A stretch of 64,000 bases of DNA from IMG/VR virus record IMGVR_UViG_3300036833_000303, positions 6,208 through 70,207 of that record; one strand, written 5' to 3'. The stretch is from a virus (Duplodnaviria; Caudoviricetes). Both the position numbers and the translations under genes were made by a program. The notes below the pieces were generated by a model that ran no database searches, was not told where the DNA came from, and was given only the letters and a program-made list of their open reading frames with translations. Of this stretch, positions 3,676 through 55,495 are shown piece by piece (position 1 is the stretch's first letter; the number at the start of each line of letters is the position of its first letter).

Positions 3676-4113
3676 ATGAATTCACACGCGGCTTTTGCTC
3701 TGGCACATCCGGTGTTCGATCCGGAGCGCCAGATTGTCGGCAGGCATTACTGGCTCGAGGACCGCACCGTCACCGCCTGCCTGACCGTCAACCTCGGCAT
3801 GGAGTGAACGCGCTATGCGGAGGGCCGTCCGCTGTGGCAGTTGAGCCTCGCGGCTCACACGTCCGAGGGTCCTCTGCTGGTGCTCCGTTGGAGCCCGACG
3901 CGCCGCCGCCGCATGGAGCGGATCAGGGACCGGATCTTTTTTGGGCTCGGCACCGACGAGCCGCTGTTTGAGGAGGTCCTGCCCGACGATCTGGCGATCG
4001 CGCGGTTTGGTAACCTGCCGATCTCGGTGAGCTGGCGCAAGCCGCTGTCGCTCGCCGAGGTCAATCAGATGGCACCGACCGCAGAAGTGCGTCAACGACC
4101 GGGTAGACCATAG
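3676..4113 (+). CDS. Hypothetical protein interrupted by one in-frame TGA (3805-3807); selenoprotein candidate or pseudogene
   Basis: AAGGAGG RBS, ATG 3676, 43 codons, TGA, then the same frame stays open to 4113. No RBS before the downstream TTG 3841. Confidence 0.55.
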
Positions 4114-5210: not shown

Positions 5211-5677
5211 GCGCTGCCGCACACTGGTCGAGCTCGCGCGATAAAGCGCCACGCTTCAAGTTGACCGCGCCCGAGCCGCTCGAGGTCGACATCCACCAGG
5301 CCTGCGCCGAGGCCCTCGACAAGCTCTTGCTGCCGCCGGCGGTGTGGGCGTGCTATCCGGCCGGTGCGACGCAGCTGACGGCGCAACAGGTGGCGCGCTA
5401 TTCACGCCTCGGGCTCAAGCGCGGCTGGCCGGATTTGATTATCATCTTCGACGGCCGGATCTTCGGGCTCGAATTGAAGCGCAAAGGTGGGCGGCTTTCG
5501 AAAACACGCGTCAGCCGGACCCGCCGGGGCAGCCCGCGCATCCTCGACGGTCAGAAAGATGTCTTCAAGCGGCTGGCAGCTGCTGGCATGACGATCGCCG
5601 TCGCCCACTCGGTCGACGAGATGCTGGCCCAGCTCGCCCGCTGGGATATCCCGCTGCGCGCCAGAGTCGTGGCATGA
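5207..5677 (+). CDS. VRR-NUC family nuclease (Holliday-junction resolvase-like)
   Basis: EVDIH...GLKRGWPDLIII...GLELKRKGGRLS...Q motif. Confidence 0.72.
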   Translation: MSAAAHWSSSRDKAPRFKLTAPEPLEVDIHQACAEALDKLLLPPAVWACYPAGATQLTAQQVARYSRLGLKRGWPDLIIIFDGRIFGLELKRKGGRLSKTRVSRTRRGSPRILDGQKDVFKRLAAAGMTIAVAHSVDEMLAQLARWDIPLRARVVA

Positions 5678-12169: not shown

Positions 12170-12625
12170 ATGGCCATGCGCAACGGCGTCGTCGGCGCCT
12201 TCGTGCCCGACCGCTACCACAAAAAGCTCGTCACCGAGTTGGTCGGCTTCGGTCTGACGCACGAAGAGATCGCCCCGCTGGTGATCGACTACCACACCCA
12301 GCAGCCGATTAGCGCTTCTAGCCTGCGGCGTCACTTCCGCCGCGAGCTGACACTGGGTCTGCCCAAGGCTAACGCGACGATCGCCCGCGCCCTCTTCAAG
12401 GCCGCCGCGCAGGGCAACGTCACCGCCCAGATCTTCTGGCTGAAGACCAGGGCAGGTTGGCGCGAGGTGCAGTTCGTCGAGGTCGTGCCGTCACCGTCGG
12501 AGATGTCGGATGAACAGCTCGACCGGTTCATCGAGCGCGGCGAGGCTGACATCCGCACGCGTGAAGCGGGAGGCAACGTCGCTTCGCTTAGCGCTTATCG
12601 AAAGAGACCGCCGCCGCCAGGCTGA
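12170..12625 (+). CDS. terS: Terminase small subunit
   Basis: Directly upstream of terL; HTH-like N-terminus; ALFKAAAQGNVTAQIFWLKTRAGWRE. Confidence 0.78.
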   Translation: MAMRNGVVGAFVPDRYHKKLVTELVGFGLTHEEIAPLVIDYHTQQPISASSLRRHFRRELTLGLPKANATIARALFKAAAQGNVTAQIFWLKTRAGWREVQFVEVVPSPSEMSDEQLDRFIERGEADIRTREAGGNVASLSAYRKRPPPPG

Positions 12626-14042
12626 GGCGAGCCGCTTTGCCGCCTGGCGCGACAAGCCCGCGGCGTTTGTCGCCGAGGTGCTCGGCGAATTCCTGTGGTC
12701 GAAGCAGATCGAGATCGCCGAGGCGCTGATCGGTCATCGCAAGGTCGCCGTGCAGTCCTGCCACGGGCCCGGCAAGTCCTTTATCGGGGCGCGCATCGTC
12801 GACTGGTTTATCGCCACCGCCGTCCCCGGCGAGGCGCGGGCGATCACCACCGCGCCCACCGGCGACCAGGTCCGTGGGGTGCTGTGGCACGAGATCAACA
12901 CCGCGCATACCAAGGGCCGATTGCCCGGCCGCACCACCCAGACCGAATGGTGGATCGGCAAGTTCCTGGCCGCACTCGGGCGCAAACCTTCCGACTACGC
13001 GCCGATCGCCTTCCAGGGCTACCACGCCAAGCGGCTCTTGGTGCTGATCGACGAGGCTTGCGGCGTCCCGCTGTCGCTGTGGATCGCCGCCGACTCGCTG
13101 CTCACCACCGAGGAGAGCCGCATCCTGGCGATCGGCAACCCCGACGACCCGGCTTCGCAGTTCGCCACCGTGTGCAAGCCGGGCTCGGGCTGGCACGTCA
13201 TTCGCATCAACGCCTTCGACACCCCGAACTTCACCGGCGAGGAGGTTCCCGATGCGATCCGGCCGCTCTTGACCTCGCGGATCTGGGTCGAGGACAAGCG
13301 CAAGAGCTGGGGCGAAGCCTCGCCCTTGTGGCAGTCGAAGGTGCTGGGCCTCTTCCCCGACGTCGGCGACGACACGCTCATTCCGCCGGGCTGGCTGCGC
13401 GCCGCAGTCGACCGCTATGCCGAGACGCAAGACGACCCGGAGGCCGAGGTCGAGCTCGGCTGCGACATCGCCCGTTTCGGCATGGACGAGACGGTGATCA
13501 TCATGCGCCGCGGCATCCGCGCGCGGATTTACGCCACCTTGCACCAGCGGGATTTGATGACCGTCACCGGCACCATCGTGCGGGCGATCAAGGACACCGG
13601 TGCCCGGCGGTGCAAGATCGACGATGCGGGTCTCGGCGGCGGGGTGACCGATCGCCTCCTCGAGCTGGTCTCCGAACGCGAGTTCGCCGGCCAGGACGTC
13701 GAGATCATCCCGATCAACGTCGGTACCGCGGCGACCGAGGGCGACGAGCCGCGCTCGACCCAAGAGCGCTTCCGCAACCTCAAGGCCGAAATTTCTTGGG
13801 CCCTGCGCGACCGCTTTGAGACCGGCGATATCGCGATCGAAGAGGACGAGGATCTGCTCGGCCAGACTGCGGTGATCAAATACAAGCTCACCTCACGCGG
13901 CCAGATCGAGATCGAGCGCAAGGAAGACATCAAGAAGCGCGGGTTGCCCAGCCCCGATCGATTCGATGCTCTCGTCCTCGCATTTGCTCCTCGTACTTCG
14001 CGCTCGCTGCGGGCTTGGGAATCGCTTTTGGAGAACCGCTGA
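12561..14042 (+). CDS. terL: Terminase large subunit
   Basis: SCHGPGKS Walker A, LIDEA Walker B, GCDIARFGMDET and PSPDRFDALVLAFA nuclease motifs. Start probably GTG 12561. Confidence 0.92.
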   Translation: MKREATSLRLALIERDRRRQAEASRFAAWRDKPAAFVAEVLGEFLWSKQIEIAEALIGHRKVAVQSCHGPGKSFIGARIVDWFIATAVPGEARAITTAPTGDQVRGVLWHEINTAHTKGRLPGRTTQTEWWIGKFLAALGRKPSDYAPIAFQGYHAKRLLVLIDEACGVPLSLWIAADSLLTTEESRILAIGNPDDPASQFATVCKPGSGWHVIRINAFDTPNFTGEEVPDAIRPLLTSRIWVEDKRKSWGEASPLWQSKVLGLFPDVGDDTLIPPGWLRAAVDRYAETQDDPEAEVELGCDIARFGMDETVIIMRRGIRARIYATLHQRDLMTVTGTIVRAIKDTGARRCKIDDAGLGGGVTDRLLELVSEREFAGQDVEIIPINVGTAATEGDEPRSTQERFRNLKAEISWALRDRFETGDIAIEEDEDLLGQTAVIKYKLTSRGQIEIERKEDIKKRGLPSPDRFDALVLAFAPRTSRSLRAWESLLENR

Positions 14043-14252: not shown

Positions 14253-15872
14253 ATGGCGCAGACCACCCGCCGGCGCAGCATCGCATCAACGGTAAATAAA
14301 GCGCAGGCACAAGAAAAGCGCGCGCGGCGCAACCCGCCAACGGCAGACTCATTTCAGAACTTTGCCAGTTCCGTTGGGATGGGCACTCGCAATTTGCATA
14401 GTGCCAGTACCTATGGCTTCAACCCGCTCTCGCGCGAGCGCACATTGCTCGAGTGGATGTACCGGGGCAGCTGGATCTGCGGCATCGCCGTCGACAGCGT
14501 CGCCGACGACATGGTCAAGATGGGGGTGGACTTTGGCGGAACCCTGCCGCCCGACGACGGCGAGAACCTGGAAAAGGCGCTGGCCGACCATCAGATCTGG
14601 AACCAGCTCAACGAGCTGATAAAGTGGGGCCGGCTCTACGGCGGGGCGATCGCCGTGATGATGGTCGACGGGCAAGACCCGGCCACCCCATTGCGCATCG
14701 ACACCGTCACCAAAGGTCAGTTCAGGGGTTTGCTGGTGCTCGACCGGTGGATGGTCGAGCCGTCGCTCAATAACCTCGTCAGCGACGCCGGCCCCGATCT
14801 GGGCCTGCCGAAATTCTACAAGATCACCGCCGACGCGCCGGCTCTGCCGCGCATGGATGTGCACTACAGCCGCTGCTTTCGCTACACCGGGGTCGATCTG
14901 CCGTATTGGCAGAAGATCGCCGAGAACATGTGGGGCATATCGATCTACGAGCGACTGTGGGATAGACTCACTGCGTTCGACTCGGCGACCCAAGGTGTGG
15001 CGCAGCTGATCTACCGGGCATATCTGCGCTGGGTCAAGATCAAGAACCTGCGCGAGATGATCGGCGCCGGCGGCAAGCGCCGCGATCTGCTGTTGCAGCA
15101 GATCGACATGATGCGCATGTTCCAATCGAACGAGGGCATCTCGCTGCTCGACGCCGAGGACGAGTTCGGCGCCTCGACCTACAGCTTTGCCGGGCTCGAC
15201 ACGGCACTCCTGCAGTTCGGCCAGCAGCTGTCCGGGGCATTGCAGATCCCGCTGGTGCGGCTCTTCGGCCAATCGCCGGCCGGGCTCAACGCGACCGGTG
15301 AGAGCGACCTGCGCTTATTTTACGACGGGATCCACCAGCAGCAGGAGATGCGGCTGCGCCGGCCTTTGACCAAGACGATCAACATCCTCGCCAGGAGCGA
15401 AGGGATCAAATTGCCCGACACCTTCGCCTACACCTTCCGGGCGCTCTGGCAGTTGACCACCAAGGAGAAGGCCGAGGTCGCCGAGCTCACCACCCGCACC
15501 GTGCTCAGCGCCGACGAGCTCGGCGTGATATCGCGCAAGACCACCCTCGAGGAGCTGCGTCAGTCAGGTCGCGAAACCGGGGTGTGGAGCACGATCAGCG
15601 ACGAGGACATCGAGGCCGCCTCGGCCGATCTGCCGCCGGCCCCCGCCGAAGCCTCGGCGCAGGCGGGTGGTGTTCCCGGCATGCCGGTGGCTCCCGGCGC
15701 CGGCGAACGGCCGGGCCCGGGCAGCGAGGTCGAGGGCGAACCGGGGCAAGGCGAGACCGGGAAGTCGACCAGGCTCGGGCCGGGGCTGGCACCAATCCAG
15801 GGCGGCGCCCAACGTCCGCGGTTGCCCGTGCCACCGCCCAGAGTCACCCTTGGCCGCGGGGAGGCAGCATGA
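14253..15872 (+). CDS. Portal protein (DUF1073 family)
   Basis: LEWMYRGSWICGIAVDSVADDM...WGRLYGG...IPLVRLFGQSPAGLNATGESD. Confidence 0.9.
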   Translation: MAQTTRRRSIASTVNKAQAQEKRARRNPPTADSFQNFASSVGMGTRNLHSASTYGFNPLSRERTLLEWMYRGSWICGIAVDSVADDMVKMGVDFGGTLPPDDGENLEKALADHQIWNQLNELIKWGRLYGGAIAVMMVDGQDPATPLRIDTVTKGQFRGLLVLDRWMVEPSLNNLVSDAGPDLGLPKFYKITADAPALPRMDVHYSRCFRYTGVDLPYWQKIAENMWGISIYERLWDRLTAFDSATQGVAQLIYRAYLRWVKIKNLREMIGAGGKRRDLLLQQIDMMRMFQSNEGISLLDAEDEFGASTYSFAGLDTALLQFGQQLSGALQIPLVRLFGQSPAGLNATGESDLRLFYDGIHQQQEMRLRRPLTKTINILARSEGIKLPDTFAYTFRALWQLTTKEKAEVAELTTRTVLSADELGVISRKTTLEELRQSGRETGVWSTISDEDIEAASADLPPAPAEASAQAGGVPGMPVAPGAGERPGPGSEVEGEPGQGETGKSTRLGPGLAPIQGGAQRPRLPVPPPRVTLGRGEAA

Positions 15873-49224: not shown

Positions 49225-51501
49225 ATGCAGGGCACTTATCTCGGCGGCTACCCGTGGAAAGACACGGGCATCCTGACCGCGGCCGACCTCAACGCGGCGA
49301 TCGGGGTGGCGACGGAGCTGGCGGGCGACGCCGTGCAGCGCACCGGCGACACGATGACCGGGGCGTTGGTGATCAATCTCAACGCCGCGCCGGCAACCTC
49401 GCCGGGCGGCGGGACGGTGCTGCATCTGAAGGGGATCGACGGGGCCACCGAGCACATCTACATCAACGCATACTCTGCCGGCACGTTCGGGGCCGCTCCC
49501 AACATCCAATTTGCCGCTGCCGCCGGCACGGGCGCGGCGCCGGCTCCGCTGCACTCGGGTGATTTCCTCGGTTCTCTCTCCTATGCCGGCTACTGGCGGT
49601 CGGCCGCCGGGGCCAGCGGATGGAGCACCAACCGGGTAGCGCTCAACGCCTTTGCGCTGGACAATTTTTCGGACACCGCGCAAGGGACGCAGTTGCAGGT
49701 CAGGGCGACGCCGCCCGGCACCACCAACCTGACCACCGTTCTGACGATCAGCCCAGGGCTTCAGGTCGGTGCGCCGACCGGCGGCGATAAAGGCACCGGC
49801 TCGATCAATGCCCAGGCGATCTACATCAACAACCAGCCGGTCGGCGCGCAGAGCGGTGCCGTGCCGATCACCGGCGGCACGATGACCGGGCCGCTGGTGG
49901 TCAACCTCAACGCCGCGCCGGCAGTGCCACCAAGCGGCGGGACGGTGCTGCACCTGAAGGGGATCGACGGGGCCACCGAGCACATCTATATCAACGCCTA
50001 TTCCACCGGCATTTTGGGTGCCGCTCCCAACATCACCTTAGCCGCCGCGCGCGGCACAGGCGCCGCTCCCGCCGCTTTGCAATCCGGCGACTTCCTCGGT
50101 GCGCTGTCCTTCCAAGGCTATGGCGCCACCGGCTGGAGCGGCAACCGCGTGGGGATCAATGCCTTTGCATTGGAGAACTGGGATCACAGCGGCGTCAACA
50201 ATACCGCGCAAGGCACCCAGCTGCAGATCCGGACGACACCGGTCGGCAGCACCACCCTGACCACGCGTCTGACGATCGGCCCGGGGCTGCAGGTCGGGGC
50301 GCCGGCATCGGGCGACATGGGGATCGGCACGATCAACGCCCAGGCGCTCTATGTCCAAGGGGTGGCGGTCGCGGCCGGCGGCCTCGGCGGTGCGGTGCCG
50401 CTCGCCGGCGGCACGATGAGCGGGACGCTCGGGGTCAATCTCAACGCCGCCAACTTGTTGCCGACCAGCTTGGGCCTGCCGCTGATCCACGCGGCCGGCG
50501 CTGACGCCACCCCGGCGCTGCTCGTCCTGGACGCCTATACCACCGGCACCGGTGCGCCGACCGTCAATTTCCGCGCCGCGGCGGGCACCGGGCTCAACCC
50601 GGCCACGGTCAGCCCCACGGTCGCGGCGAACCTCGGAGCGCTCCGGTTTTACGGCTACGACTCGACGACCGGCTCGTTCGAGAGCGCCGGTGCAGCGGCC
50701 GTATTCCGGGCGATCGTCAACGGCCCGTGGAGCAGCACCAGCCATCCGACGCGCTTCGAATTCCTTACGACTGCGGCCGGCTCGACCAGCCCTTCCGCGC
50801 CGTTCAGCATGATCCTGGCGCAAGGGCTCGTGGTTGGCGGGCCAAGCGGCGGCGCCGCCGGCGACATGGGTTTCGGCTCGATCAACGCCCAGGCGATTTA
50901 TGTCCAAGGACAATCGGTCGCGTTCAACGCCGTCGCCCGCACCGGCGACACGATGACCGGGGCGCTGGTGGTCAACCTCAACGCCGCGCCGGCAACACCG
51001 CCGGCGGGCGGGACGGTACTGCACCTGAAGGGGGTCGACGGGTCAACCGAACACGTCTACATCAATGCGTATTCCAACGGCGTCTTCGGGGCTGCTCCGA
51101 ACATCACCTTGGCGGCGGCGCGCGGCACGGGTGCCATACCGGCGGCGCTGCAACCGGGCGACTTTCTCGGTGCGCTGTCCTTCCAAGGCTACTGGCAGTC
51201 GGCCGGCGGGGCCACCGGATGGAGCGCCAACCGGGTCGGGATCGACGCCTTTGCGCTGGAGAACTGGTCGGACGTCCGGCAGGGCTCGCAACTGCAACTC
51301 CGGACGACGCCGGTCGGCGGCACTACCCTGACCACCGTTCTGACGATCGGCGCGGGGGTGCAGGTCGGTGCCCCGACCAGCGGTGACATGGGACCGGGCT
51401 CGATCAACGCTCAGACCATCTACATCAACGGTAGCGCAGTTCAGATCGGCAACGCCGGCAGCGGTCCCTCCGGCGCTGGCCGTATGCTCTATCTACCATA
51501 G
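49225..51501 (+). CDS. Long tail fibre built of four tandem modules of about 175 aa
   Basis: Repeated GxTMTGxLVVNLNAA...GDxGxGSINAQAIY. Confidence 0.75.
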   Translation: MQGTYLGGYPWKDTGILTAADLNAAIGVATELAGDAVQRTGDTMTGALVINLNAAPATSPGGGTVLHLKGIDGATEHIYINAYSAGTFGAAPNIQFAAAAGTGAAPAPLHSGDFLGSLSYAGYWRSAAGASGWSTNRVALNAFALDNFSDTAQGTQLQVRATPPGTTNLTTVLTISPGLQVGAPTGGDKGTGSINAQAIYINNQPVGAQSGAVPITGGTMTGPLVVNLNAAPAVPPSGGTVLHLKGIDGATEHIYINAYSTGILGAAPNITLAAARGTGAAPAALQSGDFLGALSFQGYGATGWSGNRVGINAFALENWDHSGVNNTAQGTQLQIRTTPVGSTTLTTRLTIGPGLQVGAPASGDMGIGTINAQALYVQGVAVAAGGLGGAVPLAGGTMSGTLGVNLNAANLLPTSLGLPLIHAAGADATPALLVLDAYTTGTGAPTVNFRAAAGTGLNPATVSPTVAANLGALRFYGYDSTTGSFESAGAAAVFRAIVNGPWSSTSHPTRFEFLTTAAGSTSPSAPFSMILAQGLVVGGPSGGAAGDMGFGSINAQAIYVQGQSVAFNAVARTGDTMTGALVVNLNAAPATPPAGGTVLHLKGVDGSTEHVYINAYSNGVFGAAPNITLAAARGTGAIPAALQPGDFLGALSFQGYWQSAGGATGWSANRVGIDAFALENWSDVRQGSQLQLRTTPVGGTTLTTVLTIGAGVQVGAPTSGDMGPGSINAQTIYINGSAVQIGNAGSGPSGAGRMLYLP

Positions 51502-53318: not shown

Positions 53319-53936
53319 ATGCCGGTTCTTGATGCTGTTTTCGTTGGTAAAATTCATCTACCCGAAGTCGGCGGCGGGCCGATCTATCCGCCGGTGCCGG
53401 GTCAACCGCCGGGGATCTGGCCTTCGCCGGGTGTTCCGACGCACCCGATCTACTGGCCGCCGAGCATCTGGCCCGGTCCCGGCTATCCGACGCATCCGAT
53501 CGCACCCGGCGGCCCCCCGCCGGGCATTTGGCCGGCGCCTGGAGTCCCGATGCCGCCGATCTATTACCCGCCGGGCATTTGGCCCAGCCCCGGTTATCCG
53601 GCTCATCCGATCGGACCCGGGGGCCCGCCGCCGGGGATCTGGGGTGGAGCGCCACCGCCTTATGTCGATGTCGGGCCGCCTGGGCCGCAACCGATCCCTG
53701 GCTGGCCCCCGGTGGTGATGCCGCCGATTTACTATCCGCCGCCGCAGCCCCCGAGCGAAGGTAGTCCGGGAGAACCCGCACATCCGATCTCGGGTGGGGC
53801 CATGTGGGCGTGGTCGCCCGTCTATGGCTGGGTGATCGTGCCCGGCACCGGGATGCCGCCGGGATCGCTCGGGCCGCGTCCATCCGAGCCGCCGCCCGAT
53901 CCCAATGCGCCCACGGTGAACCCGCTCCCTTCGTAA
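53319..53936 (+). CDS. Pro/Gly-rich repeat protein
   Basis: GAAGGAG RBS; repeated PPGIWPxPGxPxHPI. Confidence 0.65.
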   Translation: MPVLDAVFVGKIHLPEVGGGPIYPPVPGQPPGIWPSPGVPTHPIYWPPSIWPGPGYPTHPIAPGGPPPGIWPAPGVPMPPIYYPPGIWPSPGYPAHPIGPGGPPPGIWGGAPPPYVDVGPPGPQPIPGWPPVVMPPIYYPPPQPPSEGSPGEPAHPISGGAMWAWSPVYGWVIVPGTGMPPGSLGPRPSEPPPDPNAPTVNPLPS

Positions 53937-54058
53937 CGGAAGACGAGGAGCCGGACCCGGAGCCGCCCCCGCCGGGACCGTCGTCTTCCGATCTAACCCG
54001 GCGGCAATTGCGGCAGCTACGGCGGGCGCGCCGCTCTTAAGTTTCCTCCCGCGACTTG

Positions 54059-54092
54059 GCCCCTAGGGTACTCCCCTAGGGGCTTTTCTTTT
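54059..54092 (+). terminator. Rho-independent terminator
   Basis: GCCCCTAGGG-tactc-CCCTAGGGGC + TTTTCTTTT. Confidence 0.75.
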
Positions 54093-54095
54093 CGC

Positions 54096-54285
54096 TTTGC
54101 CAAGACACCTGAAGCGTTGTTCCACTTTTGCCAAAGTTTTCCAATTTTTGCCAAGGATTTCCCAATTAAATCAACACCATCCACCCGCTTTGAAGTCCGT
54201 GGCGATCACCGGATTCGCATTCTCTTCCAATGGGTTAAGTCGACCTAGTTTTCCACTTTTTGCCAATTTTTCCAGTTTTTGCCAA
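54096..54285. other. attP with arm-type repeat arrays
   Basis: TTT(G/T)CCA(A/C/G) octamers at about 10-bp period on both sides of a tRNA fragment, next to the integrase stop codon. Confidence 0.75.
54189..54228 (-). tRNA. selC: 5' half of tRNA-Sec (selC), attP identity block; not a complete tRNA
   Basis: GGAAGAGA-AT-GCGAATC-CGGT-GATCGC-CACGGA-CTTCAAA parallels E. coli selC GGAAGATC-GT-CGTCTC-CGGT-GAGGCG-GCTGGA-CTTCAAA; UCA anticodon. Confidence 0.8.
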
Positions 54286-55495
54286 AATTTATGACGTTCG
54301 CGCCGTCGTCATCGAGGATGCGACTGGCCGTTTCCGCCGCCCGATTCATGTCGGCCTCCCGGCTATAGTGGAACGCCATCGTCGGGCCTTTGTGACCGAG
54401 TTCGGCCTGGATCGCGCGAACATCGGCACCGCGATCGGCGAGCTTTGTCGCATTCGTCGTGCGCAACCCGTGAGGTGTCAGTCCCGGCGCGACACGCCCT
54501 TCGCATTCGAGGCGACACACCAAGTTGCGAAGGTATTTCCGAAAGGTTCCGGCGCTCCACGGTTTGCCGTCCGGCCCGGCGATGATCGTCGGACCCCGTC
54601 GCGGGGCTGCGTCGAGGATCTCGCGAAGCATCCGCCGCGCCGGTTTGCGGGGAACCTCCTCCCCGGTCTTGCCTTGGTTCCATCGAATGTGCGTCCCGTC
54701 GTAGGCTGACCAGGGGACGCTGACGATGTCGCCACCCCGCATGCTCGCGAACATGTCGAGGGCGAGCGCTACTTTGAATGTGCCTTTGGCCTCCTCGAAA
54801 ACGATACGGCATTCGTCATCCGACCAGCGGCGATTAGCTTTTGGAGCGTTCTTCGGAGCTTCGATCTTTTCAAATATCGGAGTTGGGGCATCCTCCCATT
54901 CGTGCGTTTTGGCCCACTTCAAAACGAGACGCAGCACTTGCATGACGTAATTCGCGAACCGCCGCCCGTGTTGATTTGCTGCCGTGTCTTGGATCTGGAA
55001 ACACTGCTTTGTGGTGAAAGTCCTCAGGGGCGCTTCATTGAAATGCGACAGGTAATCGAGCACCTTGTCGTAATCCTGTTGAGTGCGCAGCATGCGGTTT
55101 TTGAATTTCGGGCTCGCCCGATAGGCCGCGACCAACGCTCCCCACGTTTCGGGTAGGAATTGGGGCTCGCCCTGCAGCGTGCGAACCGCAGCCTTGAAAG
55201 CAGGCGTTCCGGGTTGTGCCGTGAGGCGTGTCCGCTTTTGCCCGGCACCGTCCGCGACGTCGGTCGCGCGATAATGATAAACGTAGCGGCCTCGTGCTAC
55301 TCGCTTGATGCCGCTACCGCGCGGTTTCCGCTCCGGCTTTACTCCCTGTTCAAGAGCGGAATATTCGGCCCAGAATTCAGGGGTTTTGGGTGCGGCAACA
55401 ATTCGCTGCATGCCGCTCTTGCGGTGGTAGAGATATTCGAGATCGCCTACCTTGACGCGCTTGATGCCGGGAGGGAGTATAGTGCGCTTAGCCAT
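54245..55495 (-). CDS. int: Tyrosine integrase
   Basis: SMRGGD (R), KT (K), HGLRTT (HxxR), LGHK (H), HYS (Y). Confidence 0.92.
   Translation of the reverse strand: MAKRTILPPGIKRVKVGDLEYLYHRKSGMQRIVAAPKTPEFWAEYSALEQGVKPERKPRGSGIKRVARGRYVYHYRATDVADGAGQKRTRLTAQPGTPAFKAAVRTLQGEPQFLPETWGALVAAYRASPKFKNRMLRTQQDYDKVLDYLSHFNEAPLRTFTTKQCFQIQDTAANQHGRRFANYVMQVLRLVLKWAKTHEWEDAPTPIFEKIEAPKNAPKANRRWSDDECRIVFEEAKGTFKVALALDMFASMRGGDIVSVPWSAYDGTHIRWNQGKTGEEVPRKPARRMLREILDAAPRRGPTIIAGPDGKPWSAGTFRKYLRNLVCRLECEGRVAPGLTPHGLRTTNATKLADRGADVRAIQAELGHKGPTMAFHYSREADMNRAAETASRILDDDGANVINFGKNWKNWQKVEN

Follow-up and report, generated by a model that had tools for sequence, protein, structure and literature searches.

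A tailed-phage attachment site with the 5′ half of a tRNA-Sec gene as its core suggests integration at selC in reverse polarity

Described tRNA-targeting elements and the present locus

To our knowledge, an element that integrates into a tRNA gene almost always carries the 3′ part of that gene, so that the host keeps the promoter. The islands found at E. coli selC, the gene for tRNA-Sec, and the retronphage phiR73 use the 3′ end of that gene. The symmetric sublocation class of Williams 2002 reportedly comprises tyrosine integrases whose crossover in a target tRNA gene falls within the anticodon loop, and the Mesorhizobium loti element of Zhao & Williams 2002 is said to be an integrative element in reverse orientation.

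Integration into the 5′-distal part of a tRNA gene has been called "considerably less frequent" than use of the 3′ part, in a paper that lists archaeal cases and cites Zhao & Williams 2002 for integration of this kind (PMC6563490). In the Pf-tRNA-Sec filamentous prophages of Pseudomonas aeruginosa, the attP is a block of 27 bp from the 3′ end of the tRNA-Sec gene (PMC7549136); these prophages use the 3′ end, as a first-pass annotation of the present DNA had stated for the known selC-targeting islands. In the tRNA-dependent lysogeny of mycobacteriophages, integration destroys the host tRNA, and the loss is made good by a complete tRNA gene that the phage carries separately (Guerrero-Bustamante & Hatfull 2024, PMC10865867).

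The stretch of viral DNA analysed here (the window; 64,000 nucleotides) contains a phage attachment site next to a tyrosine integrase gene (int), with the 5′ half of a tRNA-Sec gene as its core. We interpret it as an intact attP for selC, whose core the integrase (Int) joins to host selC at or near the anticodon loop, with the tRNA polarity reversed relative to a sister clade of integrases, and assign this reading a probability of about 0.8.

Like the anticodon-loop class, the locus has int beside attP, arm sites, and a core made of a tRNA piece that ends at the 7-nt loop, and the sister clade (loci L072-L076 and L079) is a textbook case of that class, with positions 30/32-76 of tRNA-Phe. Unlike that class, whose blocks are 3′ parts on the strand opposite int, the locus has the 5′ part of the gene (positions 1-38) on the int strand itself, which implies that the element replaces the promoter side of the tRNA gene. 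Recombination with the 5′-distal part is shared with the Zhao & Williams element and the archaeal 5′-distal integrators, and Mesorhizobium, the reported host of the former, would also match the likely alphaproteobacterial host group of the window phage. What distinguishes the present case from these is the tRNA-Sec target and a whole clade of tailed phages with several host-matched halves. The Pf-tRNA-Sec prophages have the same target gene and a tyrosine integrase, but leave the host promoter and most of the gene intact, whereas the window phage supplies positions 1-38. As in the mycobacteriophages, tRNA function in the lysogen would depend on phage-supplied sequence; unlike them, the window phage supplies half a gene in cis and no complete tRNA gene.

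A limited literature search yielded no earlier report of 5′-side integration at tRNA-Sec; its full-text part led to the Pf-tRNA-Sec paper alone. Integration on the 5′ side of tRNA genes is known but rare; new here is a phage integrase clade that acts on selC in reverse polarity and has a canonical sister clade. Of the two marks of reverse orientation, the attP content is seen in the window itself and the junction form only in a relative, by comparison of loci L009 and L007.

The attachment site and its tRNA-Sec 5′ half

The window phage is a temperate tailed phage, probably of an alphaproteobacterial host. The IMG/VR record that holds the window spans 70,207 bp, has a CheckV completeness of 100%, and is labelled "linear", without terminal repeats. 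Late genes lie to the left of the site; int and early genes, including those for an SbcC-like ATPase and a homing endonuclease, follow on the right on the minus strand (Table 1). We read this order of late genes, attP, int, and early genes as lambda-like.

Table 1. Features of the attachment site and of the late genes to its left, in window coordinates
Feature	Position	Strand	Description
Large terminase	12510-14042	+	Late gene left of attP
Portal	14253-15872	+	Late gene left of attP
Tail protein	49225-51501	+	Late gene left of attP, beyond the P′ arm
Terminator-like hairpin	54058-54084		After the late genes
P′ arm (side away from int)	54096-54174	.	About five arm-type repeats, families D1 and D2
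Anticodon loop CTTCAAA	54189-54195	-	Core end far from int; presumed 7-bp overlap for strand exchange
attP core, tRNA-Sec 5′ half	54189-54228	-	40 nt; match of covariance model R1
Leader	54229-54244	-	16 nt, from int stop to tRNA position 1
Tyrosine integrase P0001	54245-55495	-	416 aa; PF00589
P arm	54250-54291	.	Four direct arm-type repeats at ~10-bp spacing, overlapping the 3′ end of int

Arm-type repeats flank the core on both sides and adjoin int, the arrangement of a lambda-type complex attP, and the relatives are laid out alike. On both sides the arms consist of direct repeats at ~10-bp spacing, of families D1 and D2, with the minus-strand reading TGGCAAAAA / TGGAAAAA. The P′-arm repeats belong to the same family and have the same orientation as those of the P arm, and the P-arm motif family occupies the same position in the relatives (alignment A3). 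Because arm repeats and phage genes are present on both sides, the segment 54096-54291 is an intact attP and not a prophage end. The leader contains TAACCCATT; in L055 and L057, a TAAC(C/T)CATT form of it stands shortly before the half.

The integrase matches PF00589 with 50.1 bits against a cut-off of 27.1 (E = 3.7e-13). R253, K276, H342, R345, H376, and Y377, which we take to be its catalytic residues, are among the invariant columns of a 20-sequence integrase alignment (A2). The last ~19 codons of int (54245-54301, minus strand) are encoded by the P-arm repeats. This ~19-codon extension gives the window integrase a KNWKNWQK-like tail, and its relatives end soon after a ..LDDEG-like motif.

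On the other side of the site, window positions 54029-54098 (plus strand) match the alphaproteobacterial suhB/mmgR sRNA family (RF00519) below threshold, at 34.8 bits against 41 (E = 4.8e-5). The matched segment contains a GUUUCCUCCC motif together with the hairpin of Table 1, a strong predicted terminator. It forms the last part of the late operon, adjoins the P′ arm, and would be the extreme end of the prophage; the loci of four relatives that were examined contain no such match.

The core is composed of an 8-nt acceptor strand, a 2-nt linker, a 6-bp D-stem with one bulged A, and a CGGT loop, and continues with the 5′ strand of the anticodon stem, CACGGA, and the loop CTTCAAA, which holds the UCA anticodon. 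Beyond this loop the minus strand reads GCGGGT, which does not pair with CACGGA, so the likeness to a tRNA stops at the last base of the anticodon loop. The 40-nt fragment occurs once in the window and in none of 100 shuffles. A covariance model (R1) was built from seven genuine tRNA-Sec 5′ halves of bacterial genomes, with phage sequences excluded, and was run on both strands of 162 kb of sequence, from the window and 15 related loci. It matches exactly 54189-54228 on the minus strand, with 34.5 bits (E = 1.8e-5), as the sole match in the window. The fragment thus combines every feature by which we define a tRNA-Sec 5′ half: the model match, the UCA anticodon, the 8-nt acceptor strand, and the 6-bp D-stem with a 4-nt loop. 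ARAGORN found no tRNA in the whole window, the Rfam tRNA-Sec model RF01852 had no match in the whole record, and a relaxed Rfam scan of 53500-55000 did not list tRNA-Sec; tools for full-length tRNAs are blind to a half tRNA.

The first-pass annotation had described this site from the letters alone, and its description stands. The fragment that it quoted is indeed the reverse complement of 54189-54228, and the 16 nt that it placed between the int stop and the fragment are found as the gap 54244-54229 next to the TAG at 54245-54247. Its assignment to the 5′ half of tRNA-Sec is borne out by a model score that exceeds chance, and the unpaired GCGGGT and CACGGA agree with its claim that the likeness ends right after the 7-nt loop. 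That an attP carries this half, as it also held, accords with the position of the core between arm repeats with phage genes beyond both.

The D-arm of the window half has the form 7+4+6 versus the usual 6+4+6, and the fragment measures 40 nt versus the usual 39. Several alphaproteobacterial tRNA-Sec genes (L158, L159, L183, and others) likewise have 40-nt 5′ halves with a bulged base at the same place in the D-stem, and the stem strand CACGGA also occurs in some natural alphaproteobacterial genes of this 40-nt type. By this comparison, the extra D-arm nucleotide is natural variation. The nearest natural half found, that of L183, has the same 40-nt build and is identical at 34 of 40 positions. 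A host selC with an exact copy of the half was not found, which speaks against the proposed target: an exact 30-mer of it had no match in genome or viral contigs, and an exact 23-mer had a single match in metagenome contigs, which lies inside a coding region and was taken as chance.

Relatives, integrase phylogeny, and an integrated junction

The integrase has 79 homologues (80 matches counting itself), nearly all of them metagenomic, with a best identity of 54%; as a single query against genome contigs and viral contigs it gave no match. Loci of relatives were taken from the contigs of several of these homologues and from IMG/VR relatives. They contain four further versions of the 5′ half (L007/L069, L052-L054, L055/L056, and L057/L070), all downstream of int, co-directional with it, and ending at CTTCAAA, with R1 scores of 29.7 to 47.2 bits. 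Across the versions, the D-stem strands are CAAATC/GATTTG, CGAATC/GATTCG, CGGGGC/GTCCCG, and GCG(N)ATC/GATCGC, the last in the window and L055; these pairs were read by hand, as the 39-nt and 40-nt types fall in different alignment registers. Judged from these strands, D-stem pairing is kept in every version through compensatory changes on both sides.

The shared block begins exactly at tRNA position 1. In L057 and L070, which belong to very different phages, an identical half is preceded by unrelated leaders. A bare recombination site needs neither a paired D-stem nor a block that starts at position 1, and both features argue that the phage halves track working tRNA-Sec genes. The halves also lie within the natural variation of tRNA-Sec, which includes the rare bulged D-stem type. 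The same pair of loci, L057 and L070, led us to reject a captured host selC promoter as the origin of the phage leader.

Comparison of L069 (4520-4590) with L070 (4250-4335), whose integrases and flanks are almost identical, reveals a single difference: a block composed of the leader and tRNA-Sec positions 1-25. This pattern suggests that leader and 5′ half are exchanged between phages as a module, possibly to match different host selC alleles. In the most abundant member of the clade, the P0007 phage (L001, 5317-5365; also L002-L006 and L071), the arm layout is kept and the core has diverged. This core resembles the L007 half, but its loop is not CTTCAAA and lacks UCA, and R1 found no match in it (L001). 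The P0007 phage may have been retargeted to a non-tRNA site or to a decayed selC.

A maximum-likelihood tree of 32 integrases unites every carrier of a Sec 5′ half in one clade with a support of 100/100, together with the window protein, the P0007 phage, and two members with contigs too short to reach the site. Its sister clade, composed of L072-L076 and L079 (support 100/99), has attP blocks that run from position 30 or 32 of tRNA-Phe, the start of the anticodon loop, to the CCA (76), on the strand opposite int; in L073, a whole tRNA-Phe is convergent with int. More distant relatives (30-44% identity) are convergent with tRNA-Thr, tRNA-Lys, or tRNA-Gln in the usual orientation. At L090, 3950-4023 (plus strand), a complete tRNA-Gln follows a distant integrase (30% identity) co-directionally, and could be another reversed case or a phage-borne tRNA.

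In both the Sec and the Phe clade, the anticodon loop is at the block end far from int, and the tRNA-Phe stem strand ACGGA is identical to that in the window Sec half. As the Phe blocks start at the anticodon loop, the lineage would cross over at that position, with the Sec clade as its mirror image; the first-pass idea of a crossover in the anticodon loop gains backing from these same starts at 30 or 32. The end of tRNA likeness at the loop in all five versions of the half points to the same position, and the split of L009 from L007 3 nt later bounds the crossover on one side.

This split marks an integrated junction. Loci L007, L008, L009, and L010 carry the same integrase, P0006, and agree completely over int, the int-side arm, and the 5′ half and for two bases beyond the loop. 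L009 and L007 diverge 3 nt after the anticodon loop: the free forms L007, L008, and L010 run on into the P′ arm and then phage baseplate genes, and L009 runs on as a tRNA 3′ half that ends in CCA, followed by non-phage genes, including one for an AP_endonuc_2 protein. A full tRNA-Sec spans the L009 junction (5528-5619; RF01852, 53.8 bits against a threshold of 47), and its 3′ half shares 76-83% identity with genuine alphaproteobacterial tRNA-Sec 3′ halves. The order of int, phage 5′ half, and host 3′ half that the first-pass annotation had predicted is thus seen in one relative. With the P′-arm sequence as query, the search for a reciprocal junction returned only known attP contigs and no such junction for any relative, and the P′-arm scan found no junction of the window phage itself.

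The L009 hybrid scores 53.8 bits versus ~62-82 bits for genuine tRNA-Sec. Its acceptor position 7 is mismatched, and the T-stem, which lies in the host-derived 3′ half (5590-5619), is unpaired (TAGG versus CGGC), whereas every natural alphaproteobacterial tRNA-Sec examined has TGGG/CCCA. Either selC of the L009 host was already defective, or restoration of the gene matters little there; the host selC may be decaying.

The proposed rebuilt selC gene and an in-frame UGA gene

In the mechanism that we propose, Int bound to arm and core sites would recombine attP with host selC by strand exchange at or beside the 7-nt anticodon loop. The int-side junction would then be a hybrid selC that begins with the leader and 5′ half of the phage and continues with the 3′ half and downstream DNA of the host, and the host promoter with the host's own 5′ half would be left at the far end of the prophage. 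The resulting prophage would read host selC promoter and 5′ half, P′ arm, late genes, early genes, int, P arm, leader and 5′ half, and host 3′ half. The exact cleavage points, and the use of selC by the window phage itself, are inferred. In this arrangement, the rebuilt selC would lose its own promoter; its hybrid tRNA-Sec would presumably be functional, and its expression would depend either on transcripts that read through from int and are processed by RNase P, or on a weak promoter-like element formed by the arm sites.

A strict scan of the tRNA strand predicted no sigma-70-like promoter, and no terminator-like site was predicted between int and the half on that strand; together, these two results favour read-through from int followed by RNase P processing. 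A looser scan revealed an arm-site element, TTGGCA-N18-(A/C)AAAAT, with a score of 9/12 in L052, L070, and L007, where its end lies 17-39 nt ahead of the tRNA; its equivalent in the window reaches 8/12 with a 19-nt spacer. As a candidate promoter, this element is a weak lead. In the genuine selC loci L025-L027, the apparent TGA stop of a putative upstream ORF lies ~20-25 nt before tRNA position 1, and no promoter of the gene's own is obvious. Proximity of the apparent stop to selC suggests that co-transcription with a coding gene may be tolerated.

Genuine selC genes are unevenly distributed. A clear tRNA-Sec (~62 bits or more) was found in 9 of 151 genomes sampled from one order; in a class sample of 401 genomes, 77 match a loose pattern from D-loop to anticodon loop, and the loci retrieved yielded 28 confirmed tRNA-SeC calls. 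The distribution of selC is patchy, and the gene is dispensable under most conditions, which may be why a risky integration that removes the promoter could evolve. Searched against 401 alphaproteobacterial genomes, the integrase has relatives of at most 44% identity only, with nearby tRNAs convergent in the usual orientation. Its relatives in a cultured-phage collection are below 31% identity and mostly have alphaproteobacterial hosts; the portal protein, compared with cultured phages, indicated no host.

The 5′ half might serve only as homology for recombination, in which case integration would knock out selC and leave a hybrid that is not properly transcribed and does not function, with no selection for its repair. 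The defects of the L009 hybrid, with its unpaired T-stem and acceptor mismatch, would fit such an outcome, as would the lack of a clear promoter on the tRNA strand, the patchiness of selC (9/151 genomes of one order; 77/401 by the loose pattern), and the loss of the UCA loop in the P0007 phage. Against it, the D-stem, far from the crossover, has stayed paired by compensatory change in every version; the block starts at tRNA position 1 behind unrelated leaders; and the halves remain within natural tRNA-Sec variation, down to the bulged D-stem type. We therefore regard a simple knock-out as unlikely.

Two further explanations deny that the site is in use as a selC attP at all. The fragment could be a relic of an old aberrant excision or of a decayed phage tRNA gene, with the phage integrating elsewhere; no junction is known for the window phage, and ARAGORN and Rfam call nothing at the fragment. 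Its location exactly between two sets of arm repeats beside int, the persistence of this arrangement across the whole integrase clade despite diverged sequences, and the use of the 5′ half in L009 make a relic very improbable. Still less credible is a record that represents a prophage within host DNA, with the fragment as a displaced piece of a host tRNA at the prophage end. The "linear" label and missing terminal repeats would allow this, but structural genes on one side and int with early genes on the other, arm repeats of the same family on both sides, and the complete CheckV score speak against it; no host genes directly flank 54189-54228, and the integrated relative has a whole tRNA, not a half, at its int-proximal junction. 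An intact attP that recombines with host selC in reversed polarity remains our preferred reading.

The Sec and Phe clades form a natural system for how an integrase lineage flips the polarity of its target, and for the fate of a tRNA gene in which phage DNA takes the place of promoter and 5′ half. The proposed integration predicts a link between lysogeny and selenoprotein synthesis, and the integrase/attP pairs, with their defined host-matched targets, are possible integration tools for selC-bearing Alphaproteobacteria. A more far-reaching and, in our view, doubtful reading is that the prophage controls tRNA-Sec of the lysogen through the int transcript or the arm-site promoter, that closely related phages swap modules of leader and 5′ half and so keep matching different host selC alleles, and that a phage gene with a strictly conserved in-frame UGA (3676-4113) could depend on this supply. 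If true, selenoprotein synthesis (for example, of formate dehydrogenases) would be tied to the regulatory state of the prophage and to Int occupancy of the arms.

The gene in question is an early ORF at window positions 3676-4113 (plus strand) with one in-frame TGA at 3805-3807. A general co-occurrence of this gene with a selC attP was considered and rejected: a tRNA-Sec half was found in 0 of 30 viral records with the gene, so the two are not linked in general. No Cys is aligned at the TGA position in four homologues examined, and a hairpin downstream of the TGA is no stabler than shuffled sequence (z = -0.53). The three best-aligned full-length homologues are without the TGA segment. Homologues of the ORF split exactly at the TGA into pieces of ~44 aa and 75-100 aa. 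The codon is TGA in all 44 distinct IMG/VR loci, never TAA or TAG, and in the homologues it follows ..N(I/L)G(M/A)E or a sequence close to it. The next codon is variable, with ATG in a few loci only, and in all loci not cut by a contig end another 86-100 conserved codons follow without a stop. This pattern of conservation points to UGA recoding, as Sec or by read-through, rather than to two genes.
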